Shown here: positions 27,672 to 35,491 of the stretch, piece after piece
How the letters are laid out: each line of letters opens with the position of its first letter
Position numbering within the stretch: position 1 is the first letter of the stretch
Assembly (NCBI GenBank): GCA_963666515.2
Contig: OY762897.2
Coordinates: 4,544,001 to 4,608,000 of the forward strand
DNA: 64,000 bases
Direction: 5' to 3'
Origin: Candidatus Binatia bacterium
GTDB taxonomy: Bacteria; Desulfobacterota; Binatia; UBA9968; JAJDTQ01
Translations under genes and position numbers: made by a program
Notes under the pieces: generated by a model
Told to the model about the DNA's origin: nothing
The model's input: the letters and a program-made list of their open reading frames with translations, nothing else
Databases searched by the model: none

Positions 27672-27992
27672 ATGGCTAGCCAACCGGAACAAGAAGGATC
27701 GAACCGGCGGGTCATCCGACACCGTGTACGGGTGTCCGCCGAAGGGTTGAGGCGGGTTGAGGTGACCGTGCCGGCAAACGACTCTCAACTCGTAAAGGCA
27801 TTGGCAGGCGTGCTTCGTGCGGGGGGCGATGAGGCGATGAGGGTGCGCGAGGCCTTCATGTCAATGACGGCTACGGAACCCGTGCGCACTGGCGCCGAGC
27901 TCCTGGTTTTCCTACGCACCTCGCCGCTGGTGGGTGAAGACCTGACAATCGAGCGTGACAAAACCACGGGCCGCACGGTCGACCTCGGATAA
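27672..27992 (+). CDS. Antitoxin (VapB-like, RHH-type N-terminus)
   Basis: 106 aa with a GAGGAGG RBS; 'RRVEVTVP', C-terminal 'SPLVGEDL.IERD...GRTVDL'; coupled to the PIN gene by TAATG. Confidence 0.75.
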   Translation: MASQPEQEGSNRRVIRHRVRVSAEGLRRVEVTVPANDSQLVKALAGVLRAGGDEAMRVREAFMSMTATEPVRTGAELLVFLRTSPLVGEDLTIERDKTTGRTVDLG

Positions 27993-28417
27993 TGGCTTAC
28001 CTGATCGACACGAACGTGATCAGTGAGACTTTCAAGCCGCGACCCGAACGTCGCGTGGTCGATTGGATTGGTCGCCAGATGGCAAGTGATCTGTTCCTTG
28101 CGTCGATCAGCCTTGGTGAACTGGTGCGCGGCGTCCGCCGCATGAGGGAGCAGGCCAGGAGAGAACGCTTTGAACGGTGGATTGATCACGATCTGGCCGC
28201 CCAGTTTCAGGGGCGCATCCTTCCCTTCGACCATGAAGCAGCGGTGATTTGGGGTGAGATCATGGGCGACGGCGACCGGACCGGGCGGCCGAGACCCATG
28301 GCCGACGCGCAAATTGCCGCCGTCGCCCGACGGCATGGTCTGACGCTTGTCACCCGCAATATCCGCGACTTCGCAAAGATGGAAGTGGAGATGTTCGACC
28401 CTTGGGGGTCAGCCTGA
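27992..28417 (+). CDS. vapC: PIN-domain toxin (VapC family)
   Basis: Motifs 'YLIDTNVISE', 'SLGEL', 'LPFD', 'DAQIAA', 'LVTRN..DF'. Confidence 0.92.
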   Translation: MAYLIDTNVISETFKPRPERRVVDWIGRQMASDLFLASISLGELVRGVRRMREQARRERFERWIDHDLAAQFQGRILPFDHEAAVIWGEIMGDGDRTGRPRPMADAQIAAVARRHGLTLVTRNIRDFAKMEVEMFDPWGSA

Positions 28418-28440
28418 CTTCGTGAACGAACTGGTGCCAC

Positions 28441-29313
28441 ATGCCAAAACTTGACGGCGATGGGAACTTGGCAACGAAGCCGGTATTGCCGTTCCTCAAA
28501 TGGCCAGGTGGTAAACGGTGGCTCGTTCCCATCCTACTGACAACTATTCAGCCGACGAAGTTTAAGACGTATTACGAGCCATTTCTCGGTGGTGGTGCGT
28601 TCTTTTTCGCGCTGAATCCCGCAAGTGCTGTTCTTTCAGATGTTAACTCGGACCTAATTAACACCTACCGACAAGTCAGGTACCGTCCTTCCGTCTTGAT
28701 TCGTCAACTCCAAATGTTACCCGTGACAAGGCAGACCTACGAGTCACAGCGCAGACACTCGCCCAAGCGATCTCTCGACCGAGCAGTCCGTTTCCTGTAT
28801 TTGAACCGCACCGCTTTCGGTGGTATCCATCGCCTTAACCAGAGGGGCGAATTCAACGTCCCGTTTGGCGGCGGCGAGCGAACTCCGAAACCCCTTTGGC
28901 AGTCTGGTTTGTTACAAAGAGCCGCACGAGCTCTTCGATCAAGCACCCTTAAAGTTTGCGACTTTGAGCTCGCGATTTCTGAAGCTGATTGTGGCGATCT
29001 GGTCTACTGCGATCCAACGTATACTGTCGCGCACAACAACAACGGCTTCGTTCGATACAACGAGAACAATTTTTCCTGGGCGGATCAGCGGCGACTTGCC
29101 AAGTGCTGTCGTCAGGCGTCGCGAAGGGGTGCGACGGTCATCGTCAGTAACGCGGCTAGTCCGGATGTTCTTGAGCTATTCGATCCCCCACGGCATTTTA
29201 CTGTGAGTCGATCTAGCAACCTCTGTCCCAGAGTAGAGTATCGGCGTGCAACAGAGGAATACTTGTTCGTTTTCTCCTCGGACACGACAGCCCGAGTTGG
29301 ATCGACCGAGTGA
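28441..29313 (+). CDS. Dam-family (D12 class) DNA adenine methyltransferase
   Basis: Motifs 'PFLKWPGGKRWL', 'YYEPFLGGGA', 'SDVN.DLIN', 'FLYLNRT.FGG', 'FNVPFG'; motif IV reads DPTY instead of DPPY. Confidence 0.9.
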   Translation: MPKLDGDGNLATKPVLPFLKWPGGKRWLVPILLTTIQPTKFKTYYEPFLGGGAFFFALNPASAVLSDVNSDLINTYRQVRYRPSVLIRQLQMLPVTRQTYESQRRHSPKRSLDRAVRFLYLNRTAFGGIHRLNQRGEFNVPFGGGERTPKPLWQSGLLQRAARALRSSTLKVCDFELAISEADCGDLVYCDPTYTVAHNNNGFVRYNENNFSWADQRRLAKCCRQASRRGATVIVSNAASPDVLELFDPPRHFTVSRSSNLCPRVEYRRATEEYLFVFSSDTTARVGSTE

Positions 29314-30869
29314 GCTTGACGATGAAGAGCGAGTTTCTAGTTGTGGCCAAGAAGCTCATGGAGAGTGAGAGGCACCCGATGTCGGCTCGAGAGTTGGTTA
29401 AACTGGGAATGGATCGGCAACTCTTCTCGGATAAGATCGCGGGAGAAACTCCTCACCAAACGATGAAGGCCAAGTTGAGTGTTCACATCCGCCGGTTGGG
29501 TGAAAACAGTCTCTTCATCCGTACAGAACCAGGACGGTTCTTTCTGCGACACCTACTTGATAGTAACAGGGAACCGTTTGACGCCAAACCGATCGCACCT
29601 GTCGCGAGCACAGAGCGTGTCTGGGTTTACCGAACCACGGAACTCGACGGGCTAACGACATGGCAGGGGTTGTCGTCAGCTTGGAAGAAGGTAACCCTTG
29701 CCATGTTTTCTACGCTTCGGTGTGATGTTCGAGAGCGCCTTGAGGTTGAGGAAGACAACGATTACACACAGCTTCTGACATATGTCTTGGTCACAAGAGG
29801 TGAGGCCGTTTTGGCATACAGGCGAGGGACCTACAACCGAACTGAACGATATCTGAGAGGGTCGTTTTGCGTCGGTTTTGGGGGTCATGTGATAGAGGGC
29901 GACTTTGATCTCTTTCATGCGGGAGTTGAAGGGATACTTGAGAGTGCATCACGGGAGTTAATGGAGGAGCTGTCTCTTCCACCAACCGACATCGGACGAC
30001 TACGGCGACACGATGACTTGAAGATTGTAGGGATCATCAACGACGATTCTTCGGAGGTGGGCAGACGGCATCTAGCGTTCGTCGTCAACTACGAGGTTAG
30101 CGGTGATAGGTACTGGGACCGTCCCGAGAGAGGGGAGAAGGCGGTCACACAGTTACACTGGATTTCCACCACCGGAACGGCTCAGGTTTCCTTGTGGAAC
30201 TTTGAATACTGGTCACAGCTTTGTCTCCGGCAGTTCAGGCCACGTTTGGTGCGGGAGCGTGCAGCATACCGGCTACTCCGGCGGCGGTCACTGCGGCCTC
30301 CGCACATCTTGTGCATGATTGGCCCGGTTGGCAGCGGGAAGACGATCGCCACAGAGGTCTTGAGAAAGGACTTTGGTTACCGTGAGATCAATTCGGGGAA
30401 GGTCCTAGCAGGTATACTCAAGATTAAGCCGGTATCTGCCGCTCGTAGGCGACAGTTTCAACAGCGGGCGTGGCAATTCATCTCGCAGGAGAGTGGTCCC
30501 ATGCAACTTGCGAAGAGGATCGTCGAGATCGCAAATGGTTTGAACTCGGACAGAATCGTCGTCGATGGAATACGACAAGGACGCACTGTCGAGTCATTGA
30601 AGTTCCTCCTTGGAAGTAGACGACTTGGAGTTGTATTCGTGCAGACGCCTGTGGATTTGGCCTTCAAGTTTTTCGTCGATCGTTTTCCAGAGAATGCGAC
30701 GATGGCCGACTTCTTGGCTGCTAGAGACGCACTGGTCGAACAAGAAGTCGAAGAACTCATCTCAAAGGCCGACGCGGTCCTGTACAACTGGACCGGAACC
30801 CCTCAATATCGTGAAACCATTCGCGCCATGATGAGACAACTCGGAGTTTCCCGGGGGATTGGACGATGA
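29310..30869 (+). CDS. HARE-HTH + NUDIX hydrolase + P-loop nucleotide kinase fusion
   Basis: About aa 5-80: winged HTH 'PMSAREL...GETPHQTM...FIRTEPGRFFL'. Middle: YmaB/COG4112-like NUDIX 'QLLTYV...Y.R...GFGGHV...RELMEEL...GIINDDSSEVGRRHL'. C-terminal: NMP-kinase-like 'GPVGSGKT...VVDGIR...EQEVE...AD.VL.N'. Confidence 0.8.
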   Translation: MSLTMKSEFLVVAKKLMESERHPMSARELVKLGMDRQLFSDKIAGETPHQTMKAKLSVHIRRLGENSLFIRTEPGRFFLRHLLDSNREPFDAKPIAPVASTERVWVYRTTELDGLTTWQGLSSAWKKVTLAMFSTLRCDVRERLEVEEDNDYTQLLTYVLVTRGEAVLAYRRGTYNRTERYLRGSFCVGFGGHVIEGDFDLFHAGVEGILESASRELMEELSLPPTDIGRLRRHDDLKIVGIINDDSSEVGRRHLAFVVNYEVSGDRYWDRPERGEKAVTQLHWISTTGTAQVSLWNFEYWSQLCLRQFRPRLVRERAAYRLLRRRSLRPPHILCMIGPVGSGKTIATEVLRKDFGYREINSGKVLAGILKIKPVSAARRRQFQQRAWQFISQESGPMQLAKRIVEIANGLNSDRIVVDGIRQGRTVESLKFLLGSRRLGVVFVQTPVDLAFKFFVDRFPENATMADFLAARDALVEQEVEELISKADAVLYNWTGTPQYRETIRAMMRQLGVSRGIGR

Positions 30870-31489
30870 GCGGGGGTTACGACGAAGGATATCGACGCTG
30901 CCCTTGTTTTTGGGGCACTAGTCCAGGTAGTTATGTTAAGATTTTAACTCGTTATGTCCGTTCGTTTGACGGTCTCAAGGTCCTCGATGTGGGGTGTGGC
31001 GAGGGGAAGAACGCCGTTTTTTTGGCTGGCCTCGGTGCCGTGGTTGACGCGGTTGACGTTTCACCAGCAGCAATCGAGAACGGTACCAGGATGTGGGGGA
31101 AAGTGAGCAAGGTTTGCTGGATGGTCGCGGACATCCGTGAGTTAGAGTTGAGTCAGGAGTACGACATAGTAGTAGCGTATGGTCTCTGCCACTGTCTTAA
31201 CGACTCTACGGAGGTGTCAACTGTGGTGGCAAAACTGCAGGCCGCAACTGCAAGGGGAGGGTACAACGTACTGTGCGCCTTCAACGACCGTGGTCAGGAC
31301 CTCCTTTCTGCACACGCTGGTTTTGAGCCATGCCTATTAGGACACAGCGACTATCTGTCACAATATGCATCGTGGACAGTCCTTGCGGCGTCTGATTCGG
31401 ACCTAACAGAGAGGCACCCGCATAATGGAATCGACCACACACACTCGCTAACGCGCATTTTAGCAAAAAGAAGACATGATGTCGGTTGA
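30866..31489 (+). CDS. Class I SAM-dependent methyltransferase, TehB-like
   Basis: Motifs 'KVLDVGCGEGKNAVFLA', 'AVDVS', 'ADI', 'YDIVVAYG..H', 'LQAAT..GGYN'. Confidence 0.88.
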   Translation: MSGGYDEGYRRCPCFWGTSPGSYVKILTRYVRSFDGLKVLDVGCGEGKNAVFLAGLGAVVDAVDVSPAAIENGTRMWGKVSKVCWMVADIRELELSQEYDIVVAYGLCHCLNDSTEVSTVVAKLQAATARGGYNVLCAFNDRGQDLLSAHAGFEPCLLGHSDYLSQYASWTVLAASDSDLTERHPHNGIDHTHSLTRILAKRRHDVG

Positions 31490-32303
31490 GGATCTAAAGA
31501 GGTTGTATCGCGACGGACGGCTACTACCGTTCATTGGCGCCGGTGTGTCAGCGTCCGTGGAGTGGAGCGATGCGATGGGTTTACATCGCGGACCGACATG
31601 GGACGAAGTCGTGAGGCACGCGACGCATGAGCTAGGATTTGAAAATGCGACGTTACTCCGTGCAAGGGGGACTGATCTGCAGATACTAGAGTACTTTAAG
31701 CTACAGCATGGCTATGCTCCACTAACGAACTGGTTGGTTCGAGAAATGAACCCGCCAGACGACATTCTTAATAGGTCCATGATTCATAGCGAGCTTGCGA
31801 GGATGACTAAATGTTCAGTCTTTTATACCACAAATTTTGACGACTTTATCGAACGGAGCTTTAAGCTCCACGGGCGCAAGCATAAGAGGGTTGCGGTCGA
31901 GAGAGACATGGGGTCTCAAGAGGGAGTGGCGGAGGTCGTGAAATTCCACGGAGATTGGGGCCATCCGGAGCAAATGGTCCTGACGGAGTCAGACTACGAA
32001 AGACGGATGGAATTTAATGCACCCATGGACATGCGATTGTGGAGTGACCTACTAAATCGGACGATTCTCTTTATTGGGTACAGTTTTCGTGACCCAAACG
32101 TGGCCTACCTTTTTCGACGCGTTAAGGAGCGATTCGCGGAACTGCCGGATACGGTCGATGGCTACCGGGCACACATAGTAGTGCAAGAACCGTCTAGGTT
32201 TGAGCGGAGGTTGTTTCAAGAACGCAATATTCAGGTGATCCCTATAGACAGTGGTGACCTTACGCAACAGGTAGCGGCGCTGCTGGACGAAATCCGGAGT
32301 TAG
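31476..32303 (+). CDS. SIR2-like (SIR2_2) NADase-type protein
   Basis: Motifs 'PFIGAGVS', 'PTW', 'YTTNFD', 'KFHGD', 'VLTESDY', 'LFIGYSFRDPN'. Confidence 0.92.
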   Translation: MMSVEDLKRLYRDGRLLPFIGAGVSASVEWSDAMGLHRGPTWDEVVRHATHELGFENATLLRARGTDLQILEYFKLQHGYAPLTNWLVREMNPPDDILNRSMIHSELARMTKCSVFYTTNFDDFIERSFKLHGRKHKRVAVERDMGSQEGVAEVVKFHGDWGHPEQMVLTESDYERRMEFNAPMDMRLWSDLLNRTILFIGYSFRDPNVAYLFRRVKERFAELPDTVDGYRAHIVVQEPSRFERRLFQERNIQVIPIDSGDLTQQVAALLDEIRS

Positions 32304-32306
32304 GCT

Positions 32307-32963
32307 ATGGCACAGGCAAAGAAGACACGTGTTGTTTATGTAACCAGCAGTGCATTTAAGCAGGAAGAGAACGCAGTATTCGTTGAACACTGCCGGTTGG
32401 ATGACGGCAGGGTCGTTGGTGACGTTTTTGAGTTCGACATTCGGAGAGTGCCGATACAGGAAATCCTAAACGTGGACCTTAGGGTGATGGTCGCGGCTGA
32501 GGTTGTGAGTGCGTACAGTCAGCTTAAGGTGCCCTGTATCGTCGAGCACGCCGGTCTCATATTTGAGGAGTACCTCGATGCGTCTTACCCAGGCGGGCTA
32601 ACGAAACCGATGTGGGACACGCTGAAACAGGGTTTTGTGGATGAGACCAACTCGGCGAATAGAAAGGCTATCGCAAGGGCCGTTGTTGCATACTGCGACG
32701 GAATGACTGTCAAGACGTTCGTCGGGGAGACGAGGGGGACCATTGCGGAGCAGCCTCGTGGTGACCGGGAATTCTATTGGGATACAGTATTTGTTCCGGA
32801 TGATCCGTCCGGCAAGGCAACGGGGATGACGTACGCCGAAATCGCTCAGACTCGGTCACTGGGGCTACAGTATAAGGTGACGGAACTCTCGCAGTCGTCG
32901 GTGGCGATGAAGAGCTTTCTTCGCCACCGTATCGAAGTGGGTGATCCCGCGCTCTGGCGGTAG
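32307..32963 (+). CDS. HAM1/ITPase-fold protein with altered active site
   Basis: Motifs 'YVTSSAFK..E', 'IQE', 'VEHAGL', 'YPGGLTK', 'F.GET.GTI..PRG..FYWD.VF.P', 'TYAE'. Confidence 0.88.
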   Translation: MAQAKKTRVVYVTSSAFKQEENAVFVEHCRLDDGRVVGDVFEFDIRRVPIQEILNVDLRVMVAAEVVSAYSQLKVPCIVEHAGLIFEEYLDASYPGGLTKPMWDTLKQGFVDETNSANRKAIARAVVAYCDGMTVKTFVGETRGTIAEQPRGDREFYWDTVFVPDDPSGKATGMTYAEIAQTRSLGLQYKVTELSQSSVAMKSFLRHRIEVGDPALWR

Positions 32964-33003
32964 CGTTGAGTTGGTCGTCACAAGTGCCAGCGGCGACTGT
33001 CGC

Positions 33004-33178
33004 CTAGTCCACCTTGCCGTTCAGCAGGCTCGAGAGTGTCCCGTGTTTGCAGCCCAAGCGGGGCCGCCTCAGGGACATTTCAGCCGGTCTCTTCCGTGCC
33101 CTCGTGGATCAGTTCGCCCAAATGTGGTAGATTCAGCATAGGGCTTACACGTTTGATATCGTGGGCGCTCATCGTCAT
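33004..33178 (-). pseudogene. HigA-like antitoxin remnant
   Basis: The minus strand reads MTMSAHDIKRVSPMLNLPHLGELIHEGTEETG*NVPEAA, then after a frameshift LGCKHGTLSSLLNGK*. This is a HigA HTH with a nonsense codon and a frameshift. Confidence 0.7.
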
Positions 33179-33191
33179 TACTCCCTTCCCG

Positions 33192-33345
33192 TCAGTGATA
33201 GTCGATCAGGTCCAGGTCCACGGCTTCGCCGCCCACGAACCTGAACACTGCACGCCAGTTGCCGGATACACGAACACTTTGACGGCCAGCCCGGTCCCCC
33301 TTCAAGATGAAGCCGGGCGCGTCGCCACTACTTGGATGTGTTGCC
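33192..33345 (-). pseudogene. HigB/RelE (plasmid-killer family) toxin 3' remnant
   Basis: 'LKGDRAGRQSVRVSGNWRAVFRFVGGEAVDLDLIDYH*' is the canonical HigB C-terminus; the N-terminal half is missing. Confidence 0.75.
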
Positions 33346-33358
33346 TCTTGCAATAGGA

Positions 33359-33399
33359 TTCCTTGAAAATTGACCATTGACAGCGTAATATTCAAGGAA
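33359..33399. promoter_or_regulatory. Inverted repeat, putative operator of the AAA gene
   Basis: TTCCTTGAAAATT-N15-AATATTCAAGGAA (12/13 match) ending next to the ATG at 33400; TTGACA lies in the spacer. Confidence 0.45.
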
Positions 33400-34545
33400 A
33401 TGCCTTTCATCGAGCGAGACGCAATAGAATTCCAGGTCACCCGTGCGTTGCGACGCAGCAGGGGTGTGGTGCTACTGGGTCCCCGCCAGTCGGGCAAGAC
33501 TACCGTGGCGCGCCGCATCGCCAGCGGTCAGCAGGGCGAGTATTTCGATCTTGAGGATCCGTCCGATGTGGCTCGTCTGGAGGCTCCCAGGCTGGTGCTG
33601 GAACGCGCGCAGGGTCTCGTCGTCCTGGACGAGATCCAGTTGCGGGTGGATCTTCTGCCTTTGCTGCGCGTGCTCCTGGACCGGCAGCCGCTTCCGGCCA
33701 AGTTTCTGCTCCTGGGCAGCGCGGCGCCTGAAATCGTGCGGGGCGCTTCCGAGACCCTCGCAGGCAGGGTAGAGATGGTCGCCATGGCGGGTTTCCGCTT
33801 GGCCGAGGTCGGCGCTACCGGTCGTGACAGGCTGTGGCTGCGCGGAGGCTTCCCGCCGTCGTTCCTCGCCGATTCCGACGAGGACAGCTTCGCTTGGCGC
33901 GACAGCTTCGTACAGACGTTCGTCGAGCGCGACCTCCGTCGCTGGGGTTTCGAGATGGCGCCCGCGGCCATGCGCCGCTTCCTGACGATGACCGCCCATC
34001 TCCACGGGCAGCGCTGGAACGCCTCGGCCGTAGGCTCTTCGCTTGGAATCTCGCAGAATACGGTGCGGCGCTACCTGGACCTTCTCACGGGCGCCTATCT
34101 GACCCGCCAACTGCACCCGTGGTTCGAAAATGTCGGCAAGCGGCTTGTCAAATCACCGAAGGTCTACGTCCGTGACAGCGGTGTGCTGCATGCCCTGCTG
34201 GGCCTGGAGCGTCAACGCGAGGTGGAGTCCCATCCCGGGCACGGCGCTTCGTGGGAGGGCCTCTGCGTCGAGGAGATCGTCGCCGTTCACGGCGAGCGGA
34301 ACTGCTGGTTCTGGGCCACTCACGGCGGAGCCGAACTGGACGTGCTGGTGCTCGACCGCGGACGGCGCATAGGCTACGAGTGCAAATTGACGGACACCCC
34401 GAGAATGACCAAGTCGATGCACGTGGTGCTGGCCGATCTCAAGCTCGACCATCTGTTCGTCGTCTATCCCGGGGAGCTACGGTTCCCGCTCGCGGAGCAT
34501 GTGACTGCAATCGGGCTGGCTGACATCGGGCGCGACCCGGCCTGA
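33400..34545 (+). CDS. AAA_14 ATPase with DUF4143 / C-terminal nuclease-like fold
   Basis: Motifs 'GPRQSGKTT', 'LDEIQ', 'LLGSA', 'SETLAGR', 'GGFP', 'KSPKVY.RDSG', 'ELD.L...GYECK'. Confidence 0.9.
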   Translation: MPFIERDAIEFQVTRALRRSRGVVLLGPRQSGKTTVARRIASGQQGEYFDLEDPSDVARLEAPRLVLERAQGLVVLDEIQLRVDLLPLLRVLLDRQPLPAKFLLLGSAAPEIVRGASETLAGRVEMVAMAGFRLAEVGATGRDRLWLRGGFPPSFLADSDEDSFAWRDSFVQTFVERDLRRWGFEMAPAAMRRFLTMTAHLHGQRWNASAVGSSLGISQNTVRRYLDLLTGAYLTRQLHPWFENVGKRLVKSPKVYVRDSGVLHALLGLERQREVESHPGHGASWEGLCVEEIVAVHGERNCWFWATHGGAELDVLVLDRGRRIGYECKLTDTPRMTKSMHVVLADLKLDHLFVVYPGELRFPLAEHVTAIGLADIGRDPA

Positions 34546-34570
34546 ACTGTGTTCAGGACGCCGCCCGCTC

Positions 34571-35200
34571 CTATGCCTTGTGGTTGGTCCCCTTCACTAC
34601 CGTGTAGAGCGAGAAGCGGGAGAAGCGGTAGGACGTGCACTCGGTGAAGCCGGTTTCCTGGAGGAAGGGCCTGAGCTTGAGGTTGGTGCTCCAGCCCAGC
34701 CGGCGGGTGATGGGGTCGAGGGACTTGGTGATGGGACCCCAGAAGCGGGACTCGGTGGTGAAGTGGTTGACGATGACGATGGTGCCGCCCGGGCGGCAGA
34801 CCCGGCGCATCTCCGCCATCATCCGGACCGGATCGGGCACCACCGTGACCACGTGGAACGCCATCACGTAGTCGAAGGCGTTGTCGGCGAAGGTGAGGTT
34901 CAGGGCGTCCATCTCCATGACTTCGAGATGGCGCCAGCCGTTCTTGGCGATCTTTTCACGGGCCTGGGCCAGCATGAGGGGCGCCTGGTCGATGCCGACG
35001 ACGTGGCAATCACGCGGGTAGGCCGGGAACGACGCGCCGGTGCCGACGCCCACTTCCAGAATCTCCGCCCCCGCGGCAATATCCACGTCCTGGATGACGT
35101 TGCGTTCGCGCGAGTAGAAGAACTTCGCGAACGTCTTGTCGTAAAGCGGGGCCAGATCCGAGTACAGCCTGCTCTGGTGTGGCGCTTCAAGCTCGGCCAT
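34571..35200 (-). CDS. Class I SAM methyltransferase, PmtA (phospholipid N-methyltransferase)-like
   Basis: Motifs 'LEVGVGTG', 'GID....ML', 'MDALNL.F.DN.FD', 'VVPDP...E..RVC.PGG...VNHF'. Confidence 0.8.
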   Translation of the reverse strand: MAELEAPHQSRLYSDLAPLYDKTFAKFFYSRERNVIQDVDIAAGAEILEVGVGTGASFPAYPRDCHVVGIDQAPLMLAQAREKIAKNGWRHLEVMEMDALNLTFADNAFDYVMAFHVVTVVPDPVRMMAEMRRVCRPGGTIVIVNHFTTESRFWGPITKSLDPITRRLGWSTNLKLRPFLQETGFTECTSYRFSRFSLYTVVKGTNHKA

Positions 35201-35491
35201 GTTCGTGGTCCTGCTCGTGCTCTTTCGTCCGCCGCTGTCCGGCGGTGGCGCGTCTGTCATGGAACTGAGAAAAAAGCTATCGATTTCAAGGGAAAAACCG
35301 AACGGACAATGCAATTCGGATATCAATTCAAGGTGGAACTGTCAAGGTGAAGCCCCCTCCCTGGCGGTCGGGGACGCGATTGGAAATCCGGCCGCGCCTT
35401 GGCTAAATTGGGATGGAGCGCCTTTGCGGCGGCCCACCTCCCGCAAGACGTACAACTACCCGAATTATCAGGGGGTCCGTTTCTTCCCATC

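Follow-up and report, generated by a model that had tools for sequence, protein, structure and literature searches.

The 64,000-nt window analysed here (contig OY762897.2, positions 4,544,001-4,608,000, of assembly GCA_963666515.2 of Candidatus Binatia bacterium) contains a low-GC island at 28441-32963, with a guanine plus cytosine (GC) content of 0.531 versus 0.647 in the flanks. All positions below are relative to the window. The island carries five overlapping or abutting genes on the plus strand: Dam, HNK519, MT207, SIR2 and HAM1 (Table 1). The Dam gene overlaps the HNK519 gene by 4 nt, and SIR2 and HAM1 are separated by 3 nt. We compared the HAM1 product, a relative of the inosine triphosphate pyrophosphatases (ITPases), and its neighbour SIR2, a predicted enzyme that hydrolyses nicotinamide adenine dinucleotide (NAD+; NADase), with the receptor KomB and the effector KomC of the Kongming system, in which a base-modified nucleotide, deoxyinosine triphosphate (dITP), is the immune messenger. 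The three remaining genes encode a Dam-family DNA methyltransferase, a methyltransferase dependent on S-adenosylmethionine (SAM) and a multidomain protein with a nucleoside monophosphate (NMP) kinase region.

Table 1. Genes of the island and their motifs (aa, amino acid positions in the respective protein)
Feature	Positions	Strand	Basis
Dam-family (D12) N6-adenine DNA methyltransferase	28441..29313	+	Pfam PF02086, 2.4e-40
Dam catalytic motif IV, DPTY, aa 191-194	29011-29022	+	
HNK519, 519 aa, three domains	29310..30869	+	Pfam HARE-HTH, 4.6e-09, and AAA_17
HNK519 Nudix motif RELMEE	29952-29969	+	
HNK519 P-loop GPVGSGKT	30321-30344	+	
MT207, 207-aa TehB-like class I SAM-dependent methyltransferase	30866..31489	+	Pfam TehB, 3.4e-15
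MT207 SAM motif LDVGCGEG	30983-31006	+	
SIR2, KomC-like NADase effector (predicted)	31476..32303	+	Pfam SIR2_2, 2.1e-29
SIR2 GAGVS, aa 21-25	31536-31550	+	
SIR2 TTNFD, aa 118-122	31827-31841	+	
SIR2 catalytic H158 (= KomC H146)	31947-31949	+	
SIR2 D206 (= KomC D194)	32091-32093	+	
HAM1, KomB-like HAM1/ITPase-fold putative receptor, 'FYWD/SQS' clade	32307..32963	+	Pfam Ham1p_like, 56.8 bits
HAM1 TSSAFK, aa 13-18; replaces TGNxxK (KomB T7-R8-N9-R10-H11-K12), phosphate/ribose loop	32343-32360	+	alignment
HAM1 Glu65, at the position of a phosphate-binding Lys (KomB K49)	32499-32501	+	offset-16 alignment to KomB
HAM1 EHAGL, aa 80-84; His81 for catalytic Asp (= KomB H65), Ala82 for KomB T66	32544-32558	+	alignment
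HAM1 FYWDT, aa 156-160; Tyr157 at KomB Q141 (Gly in ITPases), F156 and W158 kept	32772-32786	+	alignment
HAM1 SQS, aa 195-197; replaces SHR (ITPases) or SMR (KomB), Ser197 at KomB R168	32889-32897	+	alignment

HAM1 matched PF01725 over aa 10-180, above the gathering cut-off of 22.5 bits, and fell below the cut-off of every NCBIfam RdgB/HAM1 equivalog (60.4 versus 203 for NF011396; 46.6 versus 145.35 for TIGR00042). Its nearest solved relatives by sequence were KomB structures (9v0g, 6.9e-23; 8zsg, 1.4e-22), and ITPases followed from 4e-10 down. The AlphaFold2 (AF2) model of HAM1 had a predicted local distance difference test score (pLDDT) of 89.6. In Foldseek its top three matches were the KomB chains 8zsg_E, 9xvc_A and 9v0g_A, with target-normalised template modelling scores (TMt) of 0.80-0.85 (0.85 for 8zsg_E). 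VIA-align placed 174-183 residues on ITPases and KomB at Z of 17-20.6; KomB tied with the ITPases (Z 19-20.6), and identity was highest to KomB, at 30-31%. The predicted model thus supports an ITPase three-dimensional fold for HAM1. A separate canonical HAM1 (156 bits; motifs SNxxK, ED, WGYDP and SHR) is present elsewhere in the host genome, by which the island copy was ruled out as the housekeeping ITPase. Because KomB is the nearest relative, the equivalog cut-offs are not reached and a canonical HAM1 lies elsewhere, the island HAM1 is, as judged from its sequence, an accessory, KomB-like copy.

A word-indexed search with HAM1 returned 1162 proteins at E <= 1e-5 among 1536 candidates, the best 120 of which were 64-100% identical to it. 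HMMER, run without peptide patterns against 1.84 billion cluster representatives, yielded 842 matches at E <= 0.001. In a tree of 75 representatives from the latter search, the 'FYWD/SQS' clade of HAM1 stood separate (9 rows, SH-aLRT [Shimodaira-Hasegawa-like approximate likelihood ratio test] support 99, stem 0.67). Relative to KomB and ITPases, the clade has specific insertions at about aa 27-40, 166-174 and 182-189 of HAM1, and a C-terminal extension (aa 212-218) that ends in a conserved LW(R/K).

A preliminary description of this DNA had stated that EHAGL, FYWDT, SQS and TSSAFK of HAM1 replace ITPase consensus motifs. The translation agreed, and alignment to ITPases and KomB placed all four on the motifs named. 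Compared with housekeeping ITPases of the RdgB/HAM1 family (PF01725; human ITPA 2j4e, M. jannaschii 1b78, E. coli RdgB 2q16), which share the fold (Z 17-20.6), the island HAM1 lacks the catalytic Asp, and TGN, FGWDP and SHR are all altered. The Kongming preprint (10.1101/2024.12.20.629578) reports that the catalytic Asp is replaced by His65 in KomB, which it considers probably inactive, that this His is shared by all 'defensive HAM1s', and that these are tightly linked to KomC. Two of the four changes cited are therefore not distinctive, because the His of EHAGL is this published hallmark, and not new, and because the Pro of FGWDP is lost in KomB also (FQWDC). Glu65 in place of KomB K49 is a further change that the preliminary description did not include. 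Its proposal of a non-hydrolysing receptor beside an intact SIR2 accords with the His-for-Asp change shared with KomB, which is reported to be catalytically inactive; by this likeness HAM1 would not hydrolyse its ligand. Among the 75 rows of the tree, nine in its KomB-like (FQWD/SMR) part did not have His at the catalytic position: eight had Gln (EQ) and one had DQ (P0179, P0191, P0206, P0209, P0211, P0219, P0235, P0236 and P0199), whereas the preprint, in its accessible part, calls the His invariable (10.1101/2024.12.20.629578).

To what extent the pocket resembles that of KomB was assessed against the published contacts. In the accessible text of the cryo-electron microscopy study (PMC13454610), F140, H11 and Q141 of KomB form hydrogen bonds with the O6 carbonyl of dITP, R168 stabilises the base, Q141, W142 and T66 read the deoxyribose, and K49 and R8 bind phosphate. 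Mutation of K49, F140, Q141, W142 or R8 abolishes defence; Q141 is described there as critical for dITP recognition and unique to KomB, and its mutant loses both defence and in vitro activity. The accessible part of the preprint adds N9, K12 and E15 to the nucleotide-binding residues (10.1101/2024.12.20.629578). These residues were mapped onto HAM1 by a profile alignment that spanned KomB from end to end and whose central part agreed with the PDB sequence match. Four of the 11 residues that contact dITP or are required for binding were kept (K12, E15, F140 and W142, as K18, E21, F156 and W158), and seven were changed (R8 to S14, N9 to S15, H11 to F17, K49 to E65, T66 to A82, Q141 to Y157 and R168 to S197). 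The hallmark His, which lies outside the 11 contacts, was kept (H65, as H81). Thus, the base pocket, described earlier as remodelled, differs from that of KomB and not just from that of ITPases. The KomB side chains that read O6, namely Q141, R168 and H11, are Tyr, Ser and Phe in HAM1 and cannot read O6 in the same way. The pocket is more aromatic (F17, F156, Y157 and W158) and has less positive charge near the phosphates. Because the O6-reading chains are replaced and three phosphate/ribose contacts are changed, the ligand is likely to be a nucleotide other than dITP.

Conservation of these positions was examined in 127 loci (47 from genomes and 80 from metagenomes), which contained 120 full-length HAM1 copies, 102 of them distinct. 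H81 and S195-Q196-S197 were present in all 102 distinct sequences, as were K18, E21 and E52; A82 and Y157 were each present in 101. Of the three nucleotide-binding positions added by the preprint, K18 and E21 (KomB K12 and E15) were thus kept, and position 15 (KomB N9) was Ser in 92 sequences and Asn in 10. K18, E21, E52, F156, Y157, W158, D159 and SQS were invariant down to ~45% identity. Positions 14 and 17 (KomB R8 and H11) varied within the clade, and position 65 was Glu in 72 sequences and Lys in 30. The firm clade-defining changes, at the level of sequence, are therefore S15, A82, Y157 and S197. Since FYWDT[VI]F and PC[IL]VEHAG were among the peptide patterns by which both scans picked loci, some of the invariance follows from the search itself; no pattern covered the SQS and S15 columns, and the pattern-free HMMER search recovered the same clade. 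A decaying pseudo-enzyme was ruled out, since the substitutions were invariant in 101-102 of the 102 sequences.

SIR2 retains the complete motif set claimed for it in the preliminary description (GAGVS, TTNFD, H158 and D206). Its nearest solved relative was KomC (8zsf, 1.8e-38, aa 5-258), and G21, G23, T118, T119, N120, D122, H158 and D206 were invariant in a 33-sequence alignment. In KomC, defence depends on both H146 and D194, and NADase activity on D194, according to the accessible parts of both studies (10.1101/2024.12.20.629578; PMC13454610). SIR2 shares with KomC and with other defence SIR2 NADases (ThsA, DSR2) the SIR2_2 domain, the catalytic His and the immune-clade Asp. It differs from KomC in an insertion of 8-10 residues after the GAGVS loop and is ~30% identical to KomC-type proteins.

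When the ORFs (open reading frames) of the 47 genome loci were clustered, no more than five families recurred: HAM1 in 45 loci, SIR2 in 40, HNK519 in 39, MT207 in 37 and Dam in 24. The remaining clusters were antisense shadows or local. Full-length SIR2 and HAM1 occurred together in 96 loci. The four core genes were full-length in 68 of the 127 loci, and a Dam match was found in 40 of these 68 (many contigs are cut short); Dam was missing in the other 28, some of them cut short, and at least five loci with long flanks had no adjacent DNA methylase. Of the 48 HAM1 loci whose flanks extend to 3.8 kb or more upstream and 1.8 kb or more downstream, 46 held SIR2, MT207 and HNK519. The two exceptions (L005 and L059) had a truncated SIR2 beside integrase genes or fragments. 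At L005:5717-7995, an integrase gene and a helix-turn-helix gene abut the SIR2 fragment; at L059:6157-7998, a 613-aa ORF joins integrase/DndB fragments to SIR2 from residue ~36, and a gene for a type IV secretion system coupling protein is adjacent. Core genes in two or more in-frame pieces, likely due to frameshifts or assembly errors, were seen by tblastn in L012, L044, L111, L112, L117 and L121.

The order MT207-SIR2-HAM1 was the same in every locus of the gene-order table in which MT207 is present. HNK519 lay upstream, downstream or convergent, and Dam usually adjoined HNK519. Median intergenic gaps were -4 to -1 nt, with gene starts approximate. Identity to the window co-varied across all five genes by a crude, non-independent measure (rho 0.61-0.86; 0.61-0.79 for Dam). 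Hosts included Acidobacteriota, Nitrospirota, Myxococcota, Verrucomicrobiota, Actinomycetota, Bacteroidota, Alphaproteobacteria, Gammaproteobacteria and others, with the well-conserved four-gene core in at least eight bacterial phyla. Of 401 genomes sampled from the window's phylum, only 3, its own included, had a strong match to the defensive-HAM1 profile. The clade is widely transferred. Neighbours of the relatives included restriction-modification, DndB, Mrr, integrase, resolvase and transposase genes. In a Sulfitobacter locus, a resolvase lies downstream of the system and is followed, ~1.3 kb from the system, by a 711-aa phosphoribosyltransferase + NADAR protein (L042:9912-12047) with a possible link to NAD/ADP-ribose metabolism.

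Homology to KomB and KomC, adjacency and co-inheritance make it very probable that SIR2 and HAM1 act as a sensor-effector pair. Several features set this pair apart from Kongming. HAM1 is ~27-31% identical to KomB, and the gene order is SIR2-HAM1, whereas in Kongming it is HAM1-SIR2. No KomA deaminase was found by Pfam among the island genes or among the five families recurring in the 47 loci, and the host genome (98.35% complete) had no match to the deaminase family PF00962. KomB-type loci (FQWD/SMR; L130 and L135) have the arrangement A_deaminase-HAM1-SIR2 instead. Where Kongming has KomA and borrows a deoxynucleoside monophosphate (dNMP) kinase from the phage, the island has a SAM methyltransferase and a Nudix-kinase protein, so that the operon has an NMP-kinase domain of its own.

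HNK519 consists of a HARE-HTH domain (aa 12-81), a TM1382-type Nudix-like domain (~140-300) and an AdkA-like NMP kinase (~330-510). The last two assignments were supported by PDB sequence matches (3e57, 1.2e-08; 3lw7, 1.2e-05) and by Foldseek with the AF2 model (pLDDT 86.4), which matched 3e57 at TMt 0.71 and AMP-bound 3lw7 at TMt 0.82. E216, E219, E220, G343, K344, G420 and R422 were invariant in 33 homologues, and these include the glutamates of the Nudix RExxEE motif and the Gly-Lys of the kinase P-loop. NCBIfam had no family for HNK519. MT207 is assigned to the small-molecule type of methyltransferase; its nearest PDB entry was TehB (4dq0, 9e-12), and in the ESM Atlas it fell into generic TehB-like clusters only. 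Its 73 distinct homologues have an invariant core that includes the SAM motif, and a His-rich C-terminal segment.

The Dam protein scored 195 bits against NCBIfam TIGR00571 (cut-off 114.85), and its nearest solved relatives were DpnM (3.8e-45) and E. coli Dam (1e-29), both of which methylate GATC. It was the only strong D12 match in the host genome. Its motif IV is DPTY, not DPPY; among 48 Dam high-scoring segment pairs linked to the system, DPPY was present in 24, DPTY in 18, DPAY in 2 and DPPF in 3, and one was spurious. GATC occurred 368 times in the whole window, where 213 were expected by base composition (ratio 1.73), and 23 times in the island, where 17.3 were expected.

The island probably encodes a Kongming-like system in which the signal is made by a different module and the receptor pocket has been rebuilt to match. 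In the reading that we favour, and regard as somewhat better than evenly supported, a non-hydrolysing receptor activates the SIR2 NADase in response not to dITP but to another nucleotide, plausibly one with a methylated purine base. HAM1 would have the KomB-type ITPase fold, would not hydrolyse, and would bind a nucleotide as a signal. As in the solved KomBC filament, to whose subunits the two proteins are homologous, it would assemble with the KomC-like SIR2 encoded next to it, and ligand binding would switch on NAD+ hydrolysis by the SIR2 filament, aborting the phage infection. On the side of signal production, MT207 is proposed by analogy to stand in KomA's place and would modify the base of a nucleoside monophosphate by methylation rather than deamination. 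The HNK519 kinase would raise the product towards the di- or triphosphate, replacing the phage dNMP kinase used by Kongming, and the Nudix domain would either provide monophosphate as substrate or remove signal made at the basal level. Coupling of signal production to foreign or degraded DNA would fall to the HARE-HTH domain, alone or together with Dam.

The identity of the ligand is more tentative. The preliminary description suggested that the added Tyr could stack on a methylated purine; Tyr157 may do so, and this would fit the linked SAM methyltransferase and the frequent Dam. That the ligand is a methylated purine nucleotide is possible, although we would put it at less than even. With similar reserve, we suggest that the clade represents a second base-modified nucleotide alarm pathway in bacteria, in which a system of four to five genes would use its own SAM methyltransferase, NMP kinase and Nudix domain to make a methylated purine (deoxy)nucleotide, or would salvage it from Dam-marked DNA, with no phage kinase needed, and in which the ITPase-fold receptor, rebuilt at Tyr157 and Ser197, would fire the SIR2 NADase.

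Several points weigh against a receptor retuned to a methylated nucleotide. The residue equivalences were drawn from aligned sequences and a predicted fold, and the binding, hydrolysis and NADase roles of clade members are likewise assigned by homology. TehB-like enzymes are not known to methylate nucleotides. F156, W158, K18, E21 and E52 are kept, so that a purine nucleotide pocket, as judged from these residues, persists and dITP may still be bound. The differences at positions 14, 17 and 65 may not define the ligand, because 14 and 17 vary in the clade and 65 is Lys in 30 of the 102 sequences. The defence role rests on homology and context, since IMG/VR viral contigs contained no relative of this clade and PADLOC-DB 2023 had no model for the island HAM1. 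With the defensive-HAM1 profile, viral contigs yielded a single weak locus, which was left out of the analysis. The Kongming preprint, in its accessible part, says that defensive HAM1s 'retain' the nucleotide-binding residues (10.1101/2024.12.20.629578).

Among the alternatives, a Metis-like scheme fared best, although we consider it unlikely. Dam would mark the host DNA, phage nucleases would release N6-methyl-deoxyadenosine monophosphate (m6dAMP), and this would be phosphorylated by the kinase or bound by HAM1 directly, so that the signal would be harvested rather than made. According to the accessible parts of Osterman et al. (10.1101/2025.11.05.686725) and Zhang et al. (10.64898/2026.01.15.699771), m6dAMP from Dam-methylated host DNA is a danger signal; it has been demonstrated as such for Metis and for PUA-Cal-HAD, both Dam-dependent, and Osterman et al. 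predict systems with their own DNA adenine methylase. The island Dam, the only strong D12 match in the genome, would suit such a scheme, as would the presence of Dam in 40 of the 68 complete loci and the co-variation of its identity with that of the other genes. The loss of O6 donors, the more aromatic pocket and the fewer phosphate contacts would also fit an N6-methyladenine mono- or diphosphate. However, Dam is missing from the remaining complete loci (with the truncations noted above) and from the neighbourhood of HAM1 in several loci with long flanks, and MT207, present in 46 of the 48 loci with enough flank, would be left without a role. All 5 Dam-less genomes examined had a D12 or N6_N4 methylase elsewhere, but this comparison did not discriminate because controls were also positive (6 and 10 of 14). 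The likeness to Metis (MisA/MisB) and PUA-Cal-HAD is one of concept: a methylated mononucleotide as danger signal, metabolite depletion and a link to Dam. The systems have no proteins in common with the island. Their sensors are PUA-like domains fused to a calcineurin-like phosphoesterase, whereas here the sensor has a predicted ITPase fold and the effector is SIR2. None of the nine ORFs at 27672-35326 had a Pfam PUA-like, calcineurin-like phosphoesterase or HAD domain.

It is more improbable still that the receptor reads dITP (or inosine or xanthosine triphosphate) after all, the substitutions being neutral drift and the methyltransferase and Nudix-kinase protein serving regulation or self-protection. 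The F156/W158 stacking pair, K18, E21 and E52 are conserved, and the KomBC homologue 9v0g also departs from E. coli KomB (FHWDP, no SMR), so that the pocket varies to some degree even among structures titled KomBC. The preprint suggests, in its accessible part, that partner enzymes might generate 'dITP or other' signals (10.1101/2024.12.20.629578). Drift is nevertheless difficult to reconcile with the replacement of the critical Q141 by Tyr in 101 of 102 sequences and of R168 by Ser in all 102, which are fixed, not drifting; furthermore, the locus has no adenosine deaminase and the genome has no PF00962 match. A ligand-free adaptor, in which HAM1 would be a scaffold of the SIR2 filament and the HARE-HTH protein would sense phage DNA and activate SIR2 by protein-protein contact, would explain the seven changed contacts and use a domain that could sense DNA directly, but is very improbable, because the invariant K18, E21, E52, F156, Y157, W158, D159 and SQS argue for a conserved binding site and a linked methyltransferase, Nudix domain and kinase would be superfluous for a scaffold.

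A receptor retuned away from dITP thus remains our preferred reading. KomB of Kongming (E. coli NCTC13216; 8zsg, 8zsh and 9xvc; homologue 9v0g) is the closest counterpart of HAM1: both have the ITPase fold, in HAM1 as predicted, and His for the catalytic Asp, both are encoded next to and co-inherited with a KomC-like SIR2, and HAM1 is presumed to be, like KomB, a nucleotide receptor that activates an NADase. The accessible part of the preprint lists KomBC modules with other partner enzymes only as candidates (10.1101/2024.12.20.629578). In the literature accessible to us, we found no characterisation of this architecture or of a methylated-nucleotide KomBC signal, only a general remark in the Kongming preprint, whose supplementary figures may already show this operon type. 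The island is a concrete case of a Kongming-type pair with other partner enzymes, and the changes in its receptor pocket fall on exactly those residues to which structural work assigned the reading of hypoxanthine. A methylated nucleotide as ligand would broaden the chemistry of immune signalling by nucleotides and tie Kongming-type signalling to the newly described sensing of m6dAMP, and the two receptors would form a natural pair (Q141/R168 versus Y157/S197) for retuning of an ITPase pocket. If the ligand is dITP after all, the island would be only a divergent Kongming subtype.

At 27672-28417 (+), a VapB-like ORF (106 aa, without a Pfam match) is followed by a PIN-domain VapC-like toxin gene (PF01850, 3.3e-18). 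The pair ends 23 nt upstream of Dam, and the same pair precedes the system in locus L001. On the minus strand at ~32990-33300, between HAM1 and the next gene, lies a degenerate toxin-antitoxin-like remnant, judged by eye, which may be of the HigB/HigA type. The ORF at 33192-33518 (-) has a RelE/HigB-like C-terminus and is followed by a truncated ORF of ~32 aa. The gene at 33370-34545 (+) encodes an ATPase with AAA_14 and DUF4143 domains, which matched the PADLOC candidate system PDC-S01 (2.7e-78). A 90%-identical fragment comes after the system in L001.

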